Origin: a candidate division WOR-3 bacterium
Lineage (GTDB): Bacteria > Hydrothermota > Tepidihabitantia > Tepidihabitantales > JBDRVQ01
DNA: 64,000 nucleotides
Reading direction: 5' to 3'
Assembly (NCBI GenBank): GCA_039801905.1
Contig: JBDRVQ010000001.1
Coordinates: 29,635-93,634, forward strand
A model generated the notes under the pieces. That model searched no databases and was not told the DNA's origin. It worked only from the letters and a program-made list of their open reading frames with translations. Made by a program: the position numbers and the translations under genes. Below, in pieces: positions 2,011 to 58,187 of the stretch (positions are counted from its first letter, which is position 1; every line of letters starts with the position of its first letter).

Positions 2011-2085
2011 TGGTGGAAGGATGAGCAGAAATTGTGCCGGAGAGGAAGATTTACCGAAATGGAACTGAAAATTTAGTGTCAGAAA

Positions 2086-2114
2086 ATGGGGGGTATTTCC
2101 GTATTTATTATAGA
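2086..2114 (+). promoter_or_regulatory. promoter-like element of the copy A leader (ATGGGG-17-TATAGA), 5 nt from the sORF ATG
   Basis: Same layout as copies B and D, which have TTGGGG as the -35. The -35 is weaker here. Confidence 0.35.
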
Positions 2115-2119
2115 GGGCT

Positions 2120-2224
2120 ATGAAGAAGTTAAAAGAAATTATTAAGGTAAGTTATTGGGTTCTAATCCCAACCCTTATCTCAGAAGAGAGATTAAGGAGG
2201 TGTTATGAGATAATTAGCACTTAA
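2120..2224 (+). CDS. candidate leaderless small ORF (34 aa), MKKLKEIIKVSYWVLIPTLISEERLRRCYEIIST
   Basis: The ATG lies 5 nt after the -10-like hexamer. The paralogous copy at 33102-33200 differs by an in-frame 6-nt indel plus point changes. Confidence 0.3.
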   Translation: MKKLKEIIKVSYWVLIPTLISEERLRRCYEIIST

Positions 2225-2320
2225 TAAAAATGGCATTAAATCATAAGACCTTTATCAAACAGGAGGGGTTTATCTTTATAAAAAGGGGTGTAGCATACAG
2301 GGGATGGTATCAGGGATTTA

Positions 2321-2524
2321 ATGGAAGGGATAATAGAAGTTTTAATAAAAGGCGTAATTTTAGACTTAATCGGAGATTTAATAAAGGGTTTAATCAAGAA
2401 TTTAATAGAAGGTCTAAAAGAGGATATAAAGAGAAGGATAATCAGGAGCCTAAGCCAAGGTATAATCCAGAGCCTAATTAAAGGTTTAATCCGAAGTCTA
2501 AATGGAAGCCTAATCCTAAGAGAA
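2321..2524 (+). repeat. 12-nt phased degenerate tandem array, about 17 units (consensus A-T-H-N-R-R-R-N-Y-Y-T-A)
   Basis: Hand-phased units: atagaagtttta|ataaaaggcgta|attttagactta|atcggagattta|ataaagggttta|atcaagaattta|atagaaggtcta... I found no phase-breaking indel. Confidence 0.9.
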
Positions 2525-2676
2525 ACTTTAAGGCAGAGAGATTATTCGGAACGGATATACTCGGAGGCGTGTTAATTTTGGTTGCGGTCATATATCAAAT
2601 AAGAGAGAGAAATTGGAGATATTGGTAGTGATTGGGGTAGATAGTGAAGGGAAAAAGAGGTTATTAGCGATTCACC

Positions 2677-5600
2677 TCATTTCGTAATCACAAGTTTCTT
2701 TAATATCGCTTCTCTTCCTTTTCGGAAAAAAAGAAAATAGATACGGGGGGAGAGTCTTTGGGCATTGAAGAGAAAAGAGTCAGAATATTTCCCGGGCAAT
2801 TCTCTCCTTAAAAGAATATCAACCCGTCGGCCGGTAGCATCATAAAGGATGATCTCCAATCTCCCCGGCCTTTCTACCCGGTAGCTAATCTTTGCCTCCT
2901 GCCGGATAATGGTTGGTAATTCTAAATAGAGGGTTCGCTTCGCTGGTGAAAATAAAAGATCCGGAATGGTAAGGGAAGACATTGTGGTTCTCATCTCGTA
3001 AAACTCTTGGGTATTATTCCCTTTTAAGGCATAGACCTTGTCCTGGGCATAAGCCAGAGAAGCACCTTCTTTTACCCCTCTCCTTTTTCCGGTAATGGGT
3101 AAGGGAGTAAGGGAAAACCATCTCTCTCCTCTGATGTCATAAGCCCAAAATTCTGGACTATTTCCACCCTTAAAGGCATAGATAAGTTTTAACTTTTTAT
3201 CATAGGTTAATGCGCCATCTCTAACAACTTTTGCCTTCTCCGTGGGTGGCAAATCAAACAATTCCATCCATAAACGAAGACGGGGGGCATAGGCATAAAA
3301 CTTATTCGTCTTCCCTTTCAAAACATAGATATTCTGCCCATCAGTAGTGAGGGCACTTCCCCTATCAAATCGCTTCTTTCCTGGACCTTCGGGCGGAAAA
3401 GGTAAGTCTGTAAACCAAATCTCCCTCTCACAATTATAAGCATACCATTCCGTGGTTCTTCTCCCTTTCAAAAAATAGACATATCCGGTATCGCCCAATT
3501 GGAGATAGGTGAGTCCTGCCCCAGCCAAAACCTTCTTCTCACCCGGAACATCCGCTAACCTTAGCCAGACCGGTTCCTCCCTTTTTGTGTCGTAGCGCCA
3601 GAATTCTTTTGTGTTATGACCTCTAAGAAGATAGAGATACCTCCGACCATCATAAGTAATTGCCGCCCCCTTCCCTACCCGCTTTTTCGCCTCCGAATTT
3701 GGAAAACTGTCAACGAATTCCCAGGTGTCATTCCGAATAGAATATCGGTAGAAATCATTTGTATTATTCCCTTTTAAGGCGTAGATGGTGGTATCGTTAA
3801 CCGCCACCAAACATCCCCCACCCTTCACCTTTTTCTTACTGGGTCCTAAGGGAAACTCTGCTTTGGGAAACCAGAGGAAAGCGGGGGTTGATTCCGAGAG
3901 GATTAAGAAGTCGTCAATTAGCCAATAGTTTCCGTGATCACCACAATAGAGGAAGGCGATCCGAACAGTGGGCTTGCCAATTACGAAATCGGTAATTTCG
4001 TGAAGGACGTATCCGTAATCATCAGTTCCTTTATATTTCGCAATACTATGCCAACTCAAACCGTTATCCGTTGAGAGCAAAACTACTCCGGAGTCCGGAT
4101 ATCTTTCATTATCATCATAATCATTAAAGTAACTCAACCAAACGGAATTGGCAGTGGCACAGTTAATTACCGGGGAGATTAAGGTGTCATTATTCACCTC
4201 CAATATCTCATCGGAAATCATCGCTCCCCATCGCCCATTTTTTCTTCCCTTATGCCAATCGTTGGTATTCCAGACCGGAGGTGATTCACTTCCTCCCGCT
4301 CCAATGCGCCAACCAAAAGGTGGATTGTCACCATAAGGTCCCCAATCCCCATCAAAATCTTCCGCATAGAAGGGAGGGAAAACAATCTCTTTTTTTCTCA
4401 CCTTCACCCTCCGCCGGAAAGTATCGTTGCGTGGCCGCTCGTCTCCTCTCAGTTCGGTCCAGACCTTAACGGAACAGGTAACAATCCCTAAATAGTAAGG
4501 GGCAAGCCAATCGGGATTAAAGACCACTCGGGCAGTATCCCTACCCAATACGATAGAAAGTCTCTCTTCGCCTTGATATGAATAACCATCCGGTCCAGTG
4601 ATTTGGAGTTTCACCGGCACATCCCTTTGGGTCAAAAGCCCAACATTTTTCACTGTCGCCTGGATGGGATAACTACTTTCGCAATAGACCGTCTCCGGCA
4701 TATGAATGGCGATCGTTTTCAGATCATTGAGTAAGGGCTGGAAGGTGGAGATCGCCCTCCGACAATTGACCCTCCCCCAACCGTAATTGTTATTGGGATA
4801 GGGTCCACCTTGAATTGGCTGGTCCGAAGAATCAAGGAGAGCGGAATACACCGCCCGATACTCAGAAAACCCCTTATCCAGAAGCAAGGCGACCGCCCCG
4901 GCAATGTGGGGAGCAGCGGCGGATGTCCCTCTACTCACAATATAACCGCCTCCGGGAGAGGCGGAACGAATCCCAATCCCCGGGGCAACAAGGTCCGGTT
5001 TTATAAAATTCCAATCCAGTCTTCCCCAATACTCCGATTGATTCCAGGGCGGAAGATTGGGAGCCGGACCCCGACTGGAGAAACTTGCCACTGTATCGTT
5101 AATATCGGTTGCCCCAACACCAATCACAATTGGGAAGTTACCCGGTGCTAAGTCGGTCATTGGGTTAGGACCATTATTACCGATGGCAAAAACAGGAATA
5201 ATCTCAAGTTCTCTTAAATTCCGGAGGATATTCCAAAAGAGGGTGGCCGTTCTCTCCCCACCCCAAGAGTTGCTTATCACCTGGGGGGCATCTTCACCCA
5301 ATCCGGCAAACCATTGGAGACACTCCGCAATTATGGAAAACCATCCCGTTCCTAACCGGTCAAATCCCTTAGCGGCAATAAATTGGGCACCGGGTGCCAC
5401 ACCGATATCCTCGGGAAAAGGACCAAAACCATCACCACCACAGATTATCCCCATCGTGTAAGTGCCATGCCCATTATCATCATAAGGGGTTTGATGATGG
5501 GCAACGGCATCAAACCAGCCGTTGCGCTCCCGCCAGCGGTTGCCAAAAGCCGGATGATAAACATCAACTCCGGTGTCTAAATTGCCTACGACAACCCCTT

Positions 5601-18864: not shown

Positions 18865-18937
18865 TGGGTCGTGCAGGATTCGAACCTGCGGCCACCGGAT
18901 TAAAAATCCGGTGCTCTGCCACCTGAGCTAACGACCC
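18865..18937 (-). tRNA. tRNA-Lys (anticodon UUU)
   Basis: The reverse complement GGGTCGTTAGCTCAGGTGGCAGAGCACCGGATTTTTAATCCGGTGGCCGCAGGTTCGAATCCTGCACGACCCA folds as a 73-nt cloverleaf. Acceptor stem 7 bp, anticodon loop TTTTTAA, T-loop TTCGAAT. No CCA is encoded. Confidence 0.93.
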
Positions 18938-19311: not shown

Positions 19312-19411
19312 TAAATCCCCGATACCATCCCCTGTATGCTACACCCTTTTTACAAAAATAAATCCCTCCTTTCTAAGGATAGTTTTTCTTATCAGTTAGT
19401 TAATTTATTAT

Positions 19412-19439
19412 ATTATAAAGCAATTTTGGAAGATGTCAA
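19412..19439 (-). promoter_or_regulatory. near-consensus sigma70 promoter (TTGACA-16-TATAAT) reading into box + array C
   Basis: Minus strand: attgaca tcttccaaaattgctt tataat ataataaatt. Confidence 0.6.
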
Positions 19440-32731: not shown

Positions 32732-33067
32732 TTTTCACCTCTTCACTAAAATTAAGTTTAGGGGAAAAAAAGGGAAAGTCAACATTGGTATGGAAGCAAT
32801 AAGAGAGAAGAGCCACTTTATGGTGGTAGAGATTTTTGACCAAAAGAATTGAATTTCTCGTTGATGATAATACCTTGCCAAAATAAACCTCTCGCCACCT
32901 TCTATTCAAGAAGAAGAGTTACAATCTAAGGAGTGAGCGGAAGATAAAAAGATGAAATAGAACTTTCCCACTTCGGTGGTCACACCCTTCTGAAAAGTGT
33001 CTCTTGAATTAAATAAGTTATTATAAATCAAAGGCTTATAAAAAAGGGGGAAATTTAGTGTCAGAAA

Positions 33068-33096
33068 TTGGGGGGTATTTCCGTATTTATTATAGA
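33068..33096 (+). promoter_or_regulatory. promoter-like element of the copy B leader (TTGGGG-17-TATAGA), 5 nt from the sORF ATG
   Basis: ttgggg ggtatttccgtatttat tataga gggct ATG. Confidence 0.4.
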
Positions 33097-33101
33097 GGGC
33101 T

Positions 33102-33200
33102 ATGAAGAAGTTAAAAGAAATTATTAAGGTAAGTGATTGGGTTCTAATCCCAACCCTTGAAGAGAGATTGAGGAGGTATTATCGGGTAATTAGCACTTAA
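33102..33200 (+). CDS. candidate leaderless small ORF (32 aa), MKKLKEIIKVSDWVLIPTLEERLRRYYRVIST
   Basis: Paralogue of 2120-2224. Both share the same start context and the same stop (AGC ACT TAA). Confidence 0.3.
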   Translation: MKKLKEIIKVSDWVLIPTLEERLRRYYRVIST

Positions 33201-33297
33201 TAAAAATGGCATTAAATAATAAAAAACTTTATCAAACAGGAGGGGTTTATCTTTATAAAAAGGGGTGTAGCATACAGGGGATGGTATCGGGGATTTA

Positions 33298-33516
33298 ATG
33301 GAAGGCATAATCTAAGGCATAATTTTAGGCTTAATCGGAGTTTTAATAGAGGGTTTAATTGAGAATCTAATAAATACTCTAAAAGAAGTTATAACCGGCG
33401 GTATAATCAGAAGCCTAATTCAGAGTTTAATAGAAAGGATAATAAAGAGTTTAATCATGTGTCTAATTAAGGGTTTAATCCGAAGGGAAAATAGAAACCT
33501 AATTGAGAATGATTAG
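33298..33516 (+). repeat. 12-nt phased degenerate tandem array, 18 units
   Basis: atggaaggcata|atctaaggcata|attttaggctta|atcggagtttta|atagagggttta|attgagaatcta|...|attgagaatgat|tag. Confidence 0.9.
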
Positions 33517-33745
33517 TGGAGAAGAATAATCTTTTCTCTTTGAATAGAGCCCTCGCTTTCCATCCGCTCCCAATAAATGGGTAAAACTTTCCCCGGATGC
33601 GCATCGTGTGCCAATGAGGGCAAAATCTGATTTCCTTGCTGGGTGGATACCGGGAAACTATCAATAATAACACCAGAAGGATTTAAGCGGGCACCATAGA
33701 TATCAGATCACAAGATAATTTATGCCATCTTTCCCGGATTTTATG

Positions 33746-46447: not shown

Positions 46448-47410
46448 ATGAAAAAGAGATTATTAGTTTTAATTTTTCTCACCACTGGTTTATTGGGAAA
46501 GGAAGAGTTTCCCGCTTTATTCCCGATTCGGCAAAACTTCCGCTACGGATTGATTGACTCTACGGGAAAAATTGTCGTCAAACCACAACTTGATGGAATT
46601 GATGACTTCTCAGAAGGGATGGCAGTGATTAGAATCAATAACCAGTGGGGTTATATTGATGCCCGGAACTGGCAGGTCTTAAAGACTAAGTTTGAACAGG
46701 TTGGCCGTTTCTCCGAAGGGAAGGCGCGTGTCTTATACAAAGGGAAATGGGGTTATATTGACCGAAATGGGAAATTTGTGATCAAGCCCCAGTTTGAGTT
46801 CGCCGGTGATTTTCGGGAAGGGAAGGCCGCGGTGGGTATTGGGGGCAAGGTTGGTTACATTGATTCTACTGGTAAATTTATTATCAGTCCCCAGTTTTTC
46901 TCCACCTTCAACTTTTCCGAAGGGAGAGCGGGTGTTTTAGTTGGTAATAAACTCGGTTATATTGATTCGACCGGCAAGGTGGTGATTAAACCGATCTTTG
47001 ATTTCATCTGGGACTTTAAGGAAGGTTTGGCTCGGGTAATGGTCAATAGGAAATGGGGTTATATTGACCGAAATGGGAAGTTTGTGATTAAGCCCCGGTT
47101 TGATGAGGCATTTGATTTTTCGGAGAGTCTGGCCGCGGTCCGGGTGAAGGAGAAAATCGGTTATATTGACAAAAAGGGTAAATTTGTTATCAAACCGAAA
47201 TTTAAAGCCGGTGGCGAATTTTCAGAAGGACTTGCCCCGGCCTTAGCCGATAGTCTTTGGGGTTATATTGATAAAACTGGTGAGTTTAAGATTCAACCGA
47301 GTTTTGAAATCGCCTATCCCTTCTTTCGGGGTTTGGCAAAAGTGCAAATGAAAGGAAAGATCGGTTATATTGATAGAAGGGGAATTTTTATCTGGGAGCC
47401 AACGGAGTAG
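46448..47410 (+). CDS. WG-repeat (KWG-type) protein, exported
   Basis: About 8-9 tandem ~35-aa repeats matching GK.V(I/V)KPQF..A.DFSEG.A.V...KWGYID. Signal peptide present. Confidence 0.8.
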   Translation: MKKRLLVLIFLTTGLLGKEEFPALFPIRQNFRYGLIDSTGKIVVKPQLDGIDDFSEGMAVIRINNQWGYIDARNWQVLKTKFEQVGRFSEGKARVLYKGKWGYIDRNGKFVIKPQFEFAGDFREGKAAVGIGGKVGYIDSTGKFIISPQFFSTFNFSEGRAGVLVGNKLGYIDSTGKVVIKPIFDFIWDFKEGLARVMVNRKWGYIDRNGKFVIKPRFDEAFDFSESLAAVRVKEKIGYIDKKGKFVIKPKFKAGGEFSEGLAPALADSLWGYIDKTGEFKIQPSFEIAYPFFRGLAKVQMKGKIGYIDRRGIFIWEPTE

Positions 47411-56589: not shown

Positions 56590-56712
56590 AAATAAGTTAT
56601 TAAAAATCAAAGACTTATAAAAAAGGGAAAGATTTGGTGTCCAATTTTTGGGGGTATTTCCGTATTTATTATAGAGGGGTATTGGGTTCTAATCCCAACC
56701 CCGAAAAGAGAG
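56590..56712 (+). repeat. Dispersed composite element, copy D, leader module (promoter + extended hairpin)
   Basis: Positions 56590-56680 are about 85% identical to 33011-33100. The hairpin GGGGTATTGGG-TTCTAAT-CCCAACCCC lies at 56677-56703. Confidence 0.85.
56648..56675 (+). promoter_or_regulatory. promoter-like element of the copy D leader (TTGGGG-16-TATAGA)
   Basis: ttgggg gtatttccgtatttat tataga, followed by the hairpin and then the AAGAGAGG Shine-Dalgarno sequence of ORF 56719. Confidence 0.4.
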
Positions 56713-57419: not shown

Positions 57420-57463
57420 GTCTTAAATAAGACTTAAGTTAAGTGATAAAAATTTTATGATGT

Positions 57464-57715
57464 AGGAGGGTTTTGTCTTTAGAAAAAGGGGTGTAGCATA
57501 CAGGGGATGGTATCGGGGTTCTAATGGAAAGTCTAAGTAACGGTCTAAACTTAGGTCTAATTGGAGTTCTAAATAAGGGTCTAAAAGAAGGTCTAAAAGT
57601 AGGGGTAATAAAAAGAGTAATTGGAAATCTAATTAAGAGTCTAATTGAAAATTTAATCCGAAGTCTAATTATAGTTTTAACCGAAAGCCCAATTGAAAGT
57701 CTAACCTCAAGTCTA
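57464..57715 (+). repeat. Dispersed composite element, copy D, box + 12-nt phased array (16 units from 57524)
   Basis: AGGAGGGTTTTGTCTTTAGAAAAAGGGGTGTAGCATACAGGGGATGGTATCGGGGTTCTAATGGAAAG, followed by agtaacggtcta|aacttaggtcta|attggagttcta|aataagggtcta|... (unit consensus aaGTCTAAtt). Confidence 0.9.
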
Positions 57716-57755
57716 AATATCGGCTCGGTGAAAATAGGGGAGGGCAATAACACTA

Positions 57756-57784
57756 TTGACAAGAATACTTTTTTTGTGTATATT
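57756..57784 (+). promoter_or_regulatory. sigma70 promoter (TTGACA-17-TATATT) upstream of the HU gene
   Basis: ttgaca agaatactttttttgtg tatatt ttagga ATG. It gives a 5' region of about 125 nt ahead of the HU ATG. Confidence 0.55.
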
Positions 57785-57914
57785 TTAGGAATGGAAGTGG
57801 CGATAGCGCCCCTCGGGGCAATACCTTGCCAAATCAATCTTTTCCCAACCATTTCTCTTTTAATAAGAAACTATCGTCCACCTTCCAAAAATCCTATTAA
57901 GGGGGTGATAAAAT

Positions 57915-58187
57915 ATGAAGAAAGCCGAACTTATTGAGAAAATCGCCAAGGATGCAGGCATCTCCAAGAAACAGGCGGGGCTCGCTCTCCAATCCTTTAT
58001 GGATGCGGTGAAGATGGTGATGAAGAAAGATGACGAACTGACCCTTCCCAAATTTGGCCGGTTCTATGTGAAGAAGACAAAAGCCCGAATTGGCCGGAAT
58101 CCAAAAACCGGAGAGGAGATAAAAATTCCAGCCAGGAAGAGACCGGCCTTCCGCGCGGGGAAGGAATTAAAACTCGCTGCTAAATAA
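57915..58187 (+). CDS. HU/IHF-family DNA-binding protein
   Basis: MKKAELIEKIAKDAGISKKQA...GRNPKTGEEIKIPARKRPAFRAGKELK. A GGGGGTG Shine-Dalgarno sequence lies 7 nt upstream. Confidence 0.9.
   Translation: MKKAELIEKIAKDAGISKKQAGLALQSFMDAVKMVMKKDDELTLPKFGRFYVKKTKARIGRNPKTGEEIKIPARKRPAFRAGKELKLAAK

Follow-up and report, generated by a model that had tools for sequence, protein, structure and literature searches.

The 64,000-nucleotide (nt) stretch of the chromosome of a candidate division WOR-3 bacterium analyzed here as one piece (contig JBDRVQ010000001.1 of assembly GCA_039801905.1, positions 29,635 to 93,634; hereafter the window) contains four arrays of directly repeated 12-nt units, named A to D, and one intact operon of two small genes, P1 and P2, that immediately precedes array D (Table 1). 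We describe here the organization of these arrays, their relationship with the operon and with the proteins it encodes, and the nucleoprotein assembly that both may form together.

Arrays of exactly phased 12-nt units

Each array follows a 24-nt box, GGGATGGTATCAGGGATTTAATGG, which is present four times in the window for 0 copies expected (2301 (+), 33278 (+), 57504 (+), and 19331 (-)), and after each box come 17 to 18 units, 16 to 17 of them with TAA in phase. Five in-phase TAA at a 12-nt spacing were counted 46 times versus 0.00 in 100 shuffles, all of them in the four arrays, and within the 64 kilobases (kb) strong self-similarity at lags 12 and 24 is likewise limited to the four array regions. 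A 24-nt super-period hinted at by TRF was not retained, as lag 2 is not consistently above lag 1 in the four arrays of the window. The position matrix of the 69 units reads n-T-A-A-T-h-r-a-a-r-G-T, with AA at positions 3-4 in 69/69 units, T2 in 66, and T5 in 50. Among the 49 in-register TAAT, 45 are followed by A, C, or T, a count already given in a preliminary description of array A made from the sequence alone, and four by G, these TAATG being unit 1 of each copy. The absence of G after later TAAT cores is not a rule beyond the window, since internal ATAATG and CTAATG are found at two related loci (L004 and L009, respectively).

The constraint acts on nucleotides and register, not on a protein

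The preliminary description leaned toward a constraint acting on the TAAT core and on the 12-nt register rather than on a protein sequence. Related loci (L-numbers) collected from other 'candidate division WOR-3' metagenome-assembled genomes (MAGs) by scans and look-ups bear this out, and the comparative data decide against coding. Indeed, in six alignable array pairs, the differences at unit positions 1 to 12 number 28, 7, 0, 0, 18, 24, 29, 21, 28, 23, 33, and 25, which amounts to 80/79/77 substitutions by codon phase, and triplet periodicity is absent in all frames of both strands. All indels in these pairs are whole 12-nt units; once such indels are allowed, arrays A and B, which had been considered impossible to align unit for unit, are alignable.

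The supposed codons are not those of the genes of this bacterium. In the frame opened by the box-terminal ATG, 66 of the 69 units have NTA as their 'L/I/V codon', versus a 22% share of NTA among the L/I/V codons of 33 real genes of the window. The first base of this codon is free and the third fixed, and CTA is the commonest 'codon 4' of the arrays yet the rarest Leu codon of the genome (4.7%). Furthermore, this ATG is missing in L001-L004, including L002, the ortholog of copy D that also lies 5' of an HU gene and has no start codon; the MAG JZ-2_201705_bins_152 has an identical box with CTAAGG, CTAATA, CTAAAT, or CTAATT in place of the ATG. Of 13 distinct arrays, 8 have their 'Ile' frame interrupted by stops, among them arrays that follow intact operons (L005 and L007), and the stops previously reported in copies B and C of the window are present (Table 1). 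One reverse frame is nearly as open as the 'Ile' frame, and Pfam gave no match for the array-frame products of A and D. The arrays are therefore non-coding.

Long open reading frames (ORFs) do run over the arrays on both strands, and the overlaps listed in the preliminary description, namely, 2321-2575 (84 amino acids (aa)) with 2230-2481 and 57524-57937 (+) with 57439-57852 (-), were all recovered; at L014, positions 3420-3710 are annotated as a 96-aa gene in the public assembly. These ORFs are artefacts of the stop-poor composition of the repeat, and the lesson for annotation is that the calls made over arrays (2321-2575, 57524-57937, and the 96-aa L014 gene) are spurious. The +3 frame of copy A (2230-2481), whose product resembles a basic protein, was rejected, since in the other three copies it is closed or shifted.

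The arrays follow the P1-P2 operon and their core changes with the protein lineage

In the WOR-3-type lineages sampled, all intact P1-P2 operons with available downstream DNA (window copy D, L002, L005, L006, L007/8, L013, and L014) have a same-strand 12-nt array no more than ~100 nt downstream, except that of L018, where only 2-3 units are present. The orphan arrays carry decayed remnants of P1/P2. Across lineages, the period of 12 and the first unit are retained, most complete arrays have ~17-21 units, and the core varies with the protein lineage (CTAAT, YTAA, CTATT, or GATAT). The array of L005, whose P2 is 49% identical to that of the window, has 18 units with a YTAA core; L013 (P2 36-38% identical) has 10 units and L024, of the same lineage but with P2 itself deleted, has 20 units, both with a CTATT core; and L014-16 (P2 42% identical) have 18-19 units with a GATAT core. 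All these divergent arrays open with an in-register unit related to [G/C]ATACAGGGG. The ATACAGGGG motif itself is kept in nearly all lineages examined, the CTATT lineage having CTACAGGGGG or CTACAACAGGGG instead.

In all lineages compared, the cores are AT-only pentamers with a TpA step that alternate with G/C-containing spacers; the transcribed-sense strand of the latter is rich in purines in two of three lineages and in pyrimidines in the CTATT lineage. A constant architecture with a changing core is the pattern that specific recognition by a co-evolving protein would produce, and a mechanical positioning signal set at the structural repeat is compatible with it too. A metagenome scan with the 20-nt box gave 0 matches, while the P1 profile retrieved L005 again and one new locus, L024. 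Scanning viral contigs for five phased CTAAT/YTAAT gave more than 120 mostly single matches in AT-rich giant-virus MAGs, which we judged to be noise.

Anatomy of the full element

In copy D, the element comprises, from 5' to 3', a promoter-like region (..GGGGGTATTTCCGTATTTATTATAGAGGGG), the hairpin TTGGG-TTCTAAT-CCCAA, P1, P2, a spacer of ~45 nt, the leader AGGAGGG-TTTTGTCTTTAGAAAAA-GGGG-TGTAG, the proto-units CATACAGGGGAT and GGTATCGGGGTT, 17 units, and, after ~30 nt, the -35 box of the promoter of the HU gene. What persists in copies A and B, where the genes are lost, is the promoter region and hairpin plus a remnant of the 3' end of P2. At the orphans C, L003, and L004, the leader lies behind a perfect TTGACA-16/17-TATAAT promoter, and L009-L012 are intermediate, P1 being a fragment and P2 truncated. 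The leader displays four G-runs on the non-template strand, which are broken in L004 and L009.

The hairpin (2155-2171, 33137-33153, and 56682-56698) exposes CTAAT in a loop of 7 nt, and the stem-loop resembles a tRNA T-arm. In copy D, it is flanked by UUUGGGG...CCCCGAA, which is able to pair like an acceptor stem, and just 5' of the hairpin lies TATAGAGGGG, similar to the first array unit CATACAGGGG. This hairpin may be an autoregulation operator or the relic of a tRNA-linked insertion. At the other end of the element, the sigma-70-type -35 box of the next gene is found 0-35 nt past the last unit at several loci (window 57756-57784, L004 ~1062, and L005 ~1651), in the form of TTGACA-17-TATATT before HU and of a TTGACT abutting the array in L004 and L005.

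P1 and P2 are probable relatives of coat proteins of filamentous archaeal viruses

P1 and P2 are predicted to be all-helical with a long N-terminal helix and are paralogs of each other (hhalign probability 88.8%, E 2.5e-6, 64 columns). The stop of P1 and the start of P2 overlap by 4 nt in the lineages examined (window/L006, L005, L014, and L018), as expected for 1:1 partners. The family is tiny, and all close matches bearing a source name are from WOR-3.

The top two Pfam matches of the window P2 are Sulf_coat_C (PF12193, E 0.0044) and MCP_C (PF21660, E 0.0055), and P1-like members match SIRV2-fold capsid profiles with E 0.02-0.09. When a WOR-3 P2 profile was compared with the PDB, the two best matches were AFV1 ORF132 (3fbl and 5w7g_B, E 0.2-0.5), and a profile restricted to nine array-linked bacterial P2 members again placed AFV1 ORF132 in the top two positions, with E 0.035 and 0.077. 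A HMMER search of 1.8 billion representative proteins with the WOR-3 P2 profile recovered P0016 (E 1.5e-4) and P0015, both at ~1e-4. P0016 acts as a bridge, as it passes the Pfam cut-off of Sulf_coat_C (36.9 bits, E 4.6e-9) over nearly the whole model, and the profile including P0015 and P0016 finds AFV1 ORF132 at 1e-4 and the SIRV2 coat protein at 5e-4 in the PDB. The P1 profile gave no capsid match in the PDB by sequence, so that the link of P1 with capsid proteins rests on its paralogy with P2 and on the fold search.

In this fold search, performed with Foldseek on models of moderate confidence only, the P1 model (pLDDT 65; no viral sequence used) has the SIRV2 virion protein 3j9x as its first match (probability 0.99, TM 0.60/0.59, 126 columns), and Adnaviria coat proteins occupy all of ranks 1-7. 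The P2 model has AFV1 ORF140 (3fbz; TM 0.50, probability 0.77) as its match of best TM, all E-values being ~1. As modeled, the proteins combine a long N-terminal helix with a C-terminal helical bundle superposable on the SIRV2 and AFV1 coat proteins, which are the features of the SIRV2 fold. We consider it very likely that P1 and P2 are remote homologues of the capsid proteins of filamentous archaeal viruses, the similarity of P2 being weak when compared directly and significant when compared transitively.

The genes are chromosomal, whether in the 64-kb bacterial window or in contigs of up to 134 kb, and are flanked by RecA, HU, cytidylate kinase (Cmk), glycosyltransferase, and tRNA genes. 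The P2 profile found no relatives in viral contigs (IMG/VR). Therefore, P1 and P2 are homologues of capsid proteins and not the capsid proteins of a known virus. PADLOC returned nothing for P1 and P2, and PHROGs returned only weak matches.

At L025 (2300-3787; also L026 and L017), from a GC-rich bacterium, four small paralogs of the P1/P2 capsid-fold family lie in tandem beside genes for a sigma-54 activator and a [FeFe]-hydrogenase, and the last gene is followed by 4 x GCTAACG only. The L025 type is a second bacterial lineage with cellular SIRV2-fold genes.

A putative assembly of P1-P2 on the arrays and its competitors

The asymmetric unit of the virion, a homodimer in SIRV2 and a heterodimer of two paralogs in AFV1, covers 12 bp of A-form DNA (PMC5517147). 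The period of the arrays equals this footprint of the P1/P2 homologues, an indirect match drawn from the literature that we read as one dimer per unit. We thus lean toward the arrays being phased cis-acting assembly sites for a P1-P2 heterodimer, one per unit, and regard as slightly more probable still the broader statement that P1-P2 binds the arrays in some form. Within this broader statement, duplex DNA as the bound form is given somewhat less than an even chance, and the transcript or an RNA:DNA hybrid accounts for a minor share. Duplex DNA is favored because it is what the cited viral homologues of solved structure bind, because the -35 box of the next gene lies close behind several arrays (L004, L005, and D), and because no RNA structure is found. 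Non-coding status, phasing, linkage to the operon, protein homology, and the change of the core with the lineage come directly from the sequence comparisons, and binding, stoichiometry, the preference for DNA over RNA, and the cellular role are inferred from them.

According to this proposal, assembly would nucleate at the near-invariant first unit ATACAGGGG and continue with one heterodimer per 12-bp unit, each reading the AT-only TpA pentamer (nTAAT here, CTATT or GATAT elsewhere), to yield a defined nucleoprotein segment of ~17-21 dimers and ~200-250 bp. The one intact operon would act in trans on orphan arrays A, B, and C as additional sites. Such assembly would likely create a chromatin-like structure locally, by which these loci would be marked or insulated or the promoters next to the arrays modulated; candidate roles are marking, insulation, promoter control, and stress protection. 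The AFV1-like helix has 9.3 dimers per turn (PMC5517147); by extrapolation only, ~17-21 dimers plus the two proto-units would come close to two such turns. A more daring extension, which we put forward tentatively, is a cellular 'mini-nucleocapsid' in WOR-3, in which an Adnaviria-type capsid-fold heterodimer polymerizing on phased 12-bp arrays would turn ~200-bp stretches of the chromosome (or an R-loop there) into an A-form nucleoprotein superhelix, being at once a new bacterial chromatin mark and a cellular relative or domesticated descendant of a viral capsid protein.

Several observations weigh against phased assembly of P1-P2 on duplex DNA. As described, viral SIRV2-fold proteins show no sequence preference in their DNA contacts, whereas a specific core of 5 bp would be needed here. 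The Pfam matches of the window P2 score 17.6 and 17.1 bits, below the curated cut-offs of 25.2 and 27, and the stronger E-values against the PDB (1e-4) come from the profile containing P0015/P0016 and are not independent of P0016. L018 has an operon with only 2-3 units, and the L025 lineage has four paralogs and no 12-nt array. The leader, Shine-Dalgarno-like and rich in G-runs, is left unaccounted for. Lastly, promoter-like elements precede all arrays on their own strand, including perfect sigma-70 promoters in the orphans C, L003, and L004, and the promoter, 5' untranslated region (UTR), and leader of A and B have been kept at 95-98% identity though the genes are gone. Retained promoters and leader fit a functional transcript better than a pure DNA site.

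Such a transcript would serve, without a fold of its own, as a phased single-stranded scaffold or sponge, or would form an R-loop for which the leader's G-runs are the seed; in either form, it would bind or titrate P1-P2 with one dimer per 12 nt. Besides the promoters just mentioned, located 5' of all arrays, perfect in three orphans, and conserved with the 5' UTR in the gene-less A and B, this explanation draws on the absence of a terminator-like site after P2 in the window copy, which was scanned, on folding energies worse than those of shuffled sequences (z +1.1 to +1.3), as for a single-stranded binding platform, on the purine-rich sense strand of the spacers in two lineages, and, for the R-loop, on the four G-runs of the non-template strand. 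RNA:DNA hybrids are, moreover, A-like, as is the helix form bound by the viral homologues. On the other hand, the cited homologues with solved virion structures bind duplex DNA, the spacers of the CTATT lineage are pyrimidine-rich, the G-runs are broken in L004 and L009, and, in the manner of an upstream DNA site, several arrays adjoin the -35 box of the gene that follows. We regard a functional transcript as rather unlikely, and a G-quadruplex or R-loop role of the G-runs is speculation.

Less likely again is that the arrays are bound by another factor or by none, their adjacency to P1-P2 being historical, and that they are a decaying repeated or selfish element, iteron-like relics, or HU-type sites. 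The copies are indeed mosaic (B joining the leader type of A to the array and 3' flank type of C), B and C are accompanied by a duplicated remnant of a neighboring gene, an identical P2 is found in three contexts in three MAGs, the genes are lost in most copies, and an HU gene follows copy D. However, a relic would not retain AA in 69/69 units, an exact register in which all indels are whole units, and ~17-21 units across lineages whose proteins are only 33-50% identical. The core also changes along with the P1/P2 lineage, and the period is the footprint reported for homologues of the two proteins encoded next to the arrays. The HU neighborhood is found at 1/4 copies only, and no integrase, transposase, or partition gene flanks any copy.

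A small repeat protein, (I/K)-x-(G/S/N/D)-(L/I/V), encoded by the arrays from the ATG at the end of the box and forming a glycine-zipper-like helix, with B and C as pseudogenes, is very improbable. The frame is open in A (84 aa), D (137 aa), L002, and L014, G is depleted after TAAT, and a gene caller annotated a 96-aa ORF on the L014 array; the phase counts and lack of triplet periodicity, the fixed third base with a free first base and the dominance of the rare CTA, the ATG absent from L001-L004, the stops in 8/13 arrays, the nearly as open reverse frame, and the lack of a Pfam match all contradict it. The comparison of related arrays proposed in the preliminary description thus went against coding by the codon-position test, and its covariation side, examined with RNAalifold, gave no support to the structured RNA envisaged there as the alternative: a structured non-coding RNA (riboswitch-like, ribozyme, or large structured RNA) formed by leader and array can practically be dismissed, for although the box of 24-57 nt is strongly conserved and a promoter lies upstream, the tRNA was the only Rfam match at gathering scores, with no credible one added at E<=5, leader plus array has a minimum free energy worse than dinucleotide shuffles in three lineages (z +1.09, +1.26, and +1.26), and RNAalifold on 12 diverse leaders predicted 0 pairs.

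Comparison with known systems

The closest counterparts of P1 and P2 are the nucleocapsids of Adnaviria (SIRV2, AFV1 MCP1/MCP2), whose proteins are likewise small, basic, and entirely helical and combine a long N-terminal helix with a C-terminal bundle. Lipothrixviruses encode them in two adjacent paralogous genes, and the nucleocapsid structure repeats every 12 bp per dimer, as do the arrays. Unlike the viral proteins, P1/P2 reside in a WOR-3 chromosome among RecA, HU, and Cmk with no other viral genes among the neighbors examined, their putative partner is a phased multi-copy array of ~200 bp with a specific core instead of a whole genome coated without sequence preference, and the sequence similarity of the window proteins is below Pfam thresholds.

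In plasmid centromeres (parC-ParR of R1/pSK41 and the 7-bp heptad parS/omega of pSM19035), tandem repeats are bound cooperatively by a small ribbon-helix-helix dimer encoded next to them. A literature search brought up PMC9499535 for the heptad system. The arrays share with these centromeres short, contiguous, phased direct repeats adjoining the genes of the putative binder, and the proposal made here shares with them the expectation of one dimer per repeat and of a helical nucleoprotein superstructure. They differ in that the fold of P1/P2 is unrelated to ribbon-helix-helix, several orphan arrays are scattered on the chromosome and the arrays appear to be transcribed, and the period is 12 and not 7, 10-11, or 20. 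A plasmid-type centromere was rejected, since no ParA/ParM domain is found among the neighbors (window, L006-L012) despite the layout of an array beside its putative binder.

The sponge small RNAs CsrB/RsmZ and CrcZ resemble the arrays by the many copies of a short motif in one transcript with its own promoter, by several paralogous copies per genome, and by motifs that are conserved while the intervening sequence drifts. Unlike CsrB/RsmZ, the spacing is here exactly 12.0 nt, the candidate binder belongs to a family of capsid proteins that bind double-stranded DNA, and Rfam gives no match; a sponge of the CsrB/RsmZ type was set aside because the motif is nTAAT and not GGA and no hairpins presenting it are predicted. 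Nucleosome and archaeal-histone positioning signals likewise alternate AT-only TpA segments with G/C segments at the repeat of the putative wrapper, but they are statistical with a period of ~10 bp, while the core is here nearly invariant and the period exactly 12. The alpha/beta-type SASPs are small bacterial spore proteins that hold DNA in an A-like form; they have no sequence relation to P1/P2 and no dedicated arrays. A CRISPR array was rejected too, given a unit of 12 nt (5-nt core and 7-nt spacer) versus repeats of 23-50 nt, no cas genes among the neighbors examined, and negative PADLOC results for P1 and P2.

The system thus works most like a viral nucleocapsid confined to a phased site or like a tandem-repeat plasmid centromere and is a member of neither, because the proteins are bacterial and chromosomal without a virus, no partition NTPase accompanies them, and no RNA family matches. 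Neither bacterial SIRV2-fold proteins nor 12-nt arrays of this kind turned up in literature searches, and adnavirians are described as having a unique alpha-helical major capsid protein with no connection to bacterial viruses (PMC10848233). For a fold described as exclusive to those viruses, we report bacterial chromosomal homologues with a putative dedicated nucleic-acid partner whose period is that of the viral nucleocapsid repeat. Taken with a putative binding to the arrays, this points to a DNA-coating or DNA-marking system not previously described in bacteria. The origin of the capsid fold becomes testable, with a cellular ancestor opposed to domestication. If the proposal is true, the arrays would provide a natural sequence-defined substrate for studies of A-form DNA assembly, like a strong positioning sequence in nucleosome work, and would represent a new class of loci made of a repeat array and its associated genes in uncultivated thermophilic bacteria.

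Positions, history, and neighborhood of the copies

Table 1. Positions of the arrays, leaders, and genes in the window
Feature	Position	Strand	Remarks
Array A	2318-2521	+	17 units, each exactly 12 nt, nTAAT and purine-rich spacer; array addressed by the preliminary description
Copy A, 5' part	2069-2260	+	Operon promoter-like region (..GGGGGGTATTTCCGTATTTATTATAGAGGG), hairpin 2155-2171, decayed remnant of P2 3' end (GAGATTAAGGAGG); 95.5% identical to copy B
Leader/box A	2261-2317	+	AGGAGGGG-TTTATCTTTATAAAAA-GGGG-TGTAG, then in-register proto-units CATACAGGGGAT and GGTATCAGGGAT
Array C	19314-19111	-	17 units; stops at 'codons' 6 and 10
Leader/box C	19315-19439	-	Perfect TTGACA-16-TATAAT promoter (19439-19412)
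Copy B leader	33051-33294	+	Promoter-like region, hairpin 33137-33153, P2 remnant, box
Array B	33295-33510	+	18 units; stop at 'codon' 6
Operon promoter-like region and 5' UTR hairpin	56640-56712	+	Hairpin TTGGG-TTCTAAT-CCCAA (56682-56698), loop holding the array core CTAAT
P1	56713-57087	+	124 aa, pI 9.6, predicted all-helical; best match of AF2 model, SIRV2 virion coat protein
P2	57084-57419	+	111 aa, pI 9.4, paralog of P1; start overlaps P1 stop by 4 nt (ATGA)
Leader/box D	57465-57520	+	
Array D	57521-57724	+	17 units; directly 3' of intact P1-P2 operon; ~30 nt 5' of HU promoter (57756-57784)

As noted in the preliminary description, leaders are better conserved than arrays, with 95.5% identity between A and B over the leader and 75-80% over the array. 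This gap arises from recombination mosaicism, as copy B combines a leader 95.5% identical to A with an array and a 3' flank that are, respectively, 82 and 86% identical to C. Hypermutation of the arrays was rejected as its cause, mosaicism being simpler given that the array and 3' flank of B match C. The flank common to B (33511-33580) and C (19110-19041) extends over ~70 nt 3' of the array with 86% identity and contains, on the opposite strand, the C-terminal remnant of a gene (..PIYWERMESEGS.Q.EKII.LH*). This shared end of a neighboring gene indicates that the copies arose by segmental duplication.

An identical P2 (P0001), together with P1 and the box, occurs in three genomic contexts in three MAGs (L006, L007, and L008, 2636-3640 in each), and the type of the array changes along with the right-hand flank. 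This switch of context reflects either recombination at the repeated element or assembly chimeras.

The neighbors in the window are bacterial housekeeping genes encoding Cmk, a subtilase, RecA, an aldehyde dehydrogenase, glycosyltransferases, HU, and tRNA-Lys, and no integrase, transposase, partition, or viral genes were found among the flanking neighbors of the copies examined. The tRNA-Lys(UUU) gene (18865-18937 (-)) lies ~170 nt 3' of array C on the same strand, and in L024, the array is followed ~430 nt downstream by a tRNA-like sequence, recognized by reading only. The arrays may be co-transcribed with tRNA genes or inserted beside them. Finally, the window contains an ordinary coding repeat at 46547-47307, where seven tandem repeats of 102 nt (34 aa; 'GYID..GK.VI.P.F') lie inside the ORF 46448-47410, whose product is probably a repeat protein of the beta-propeller type.

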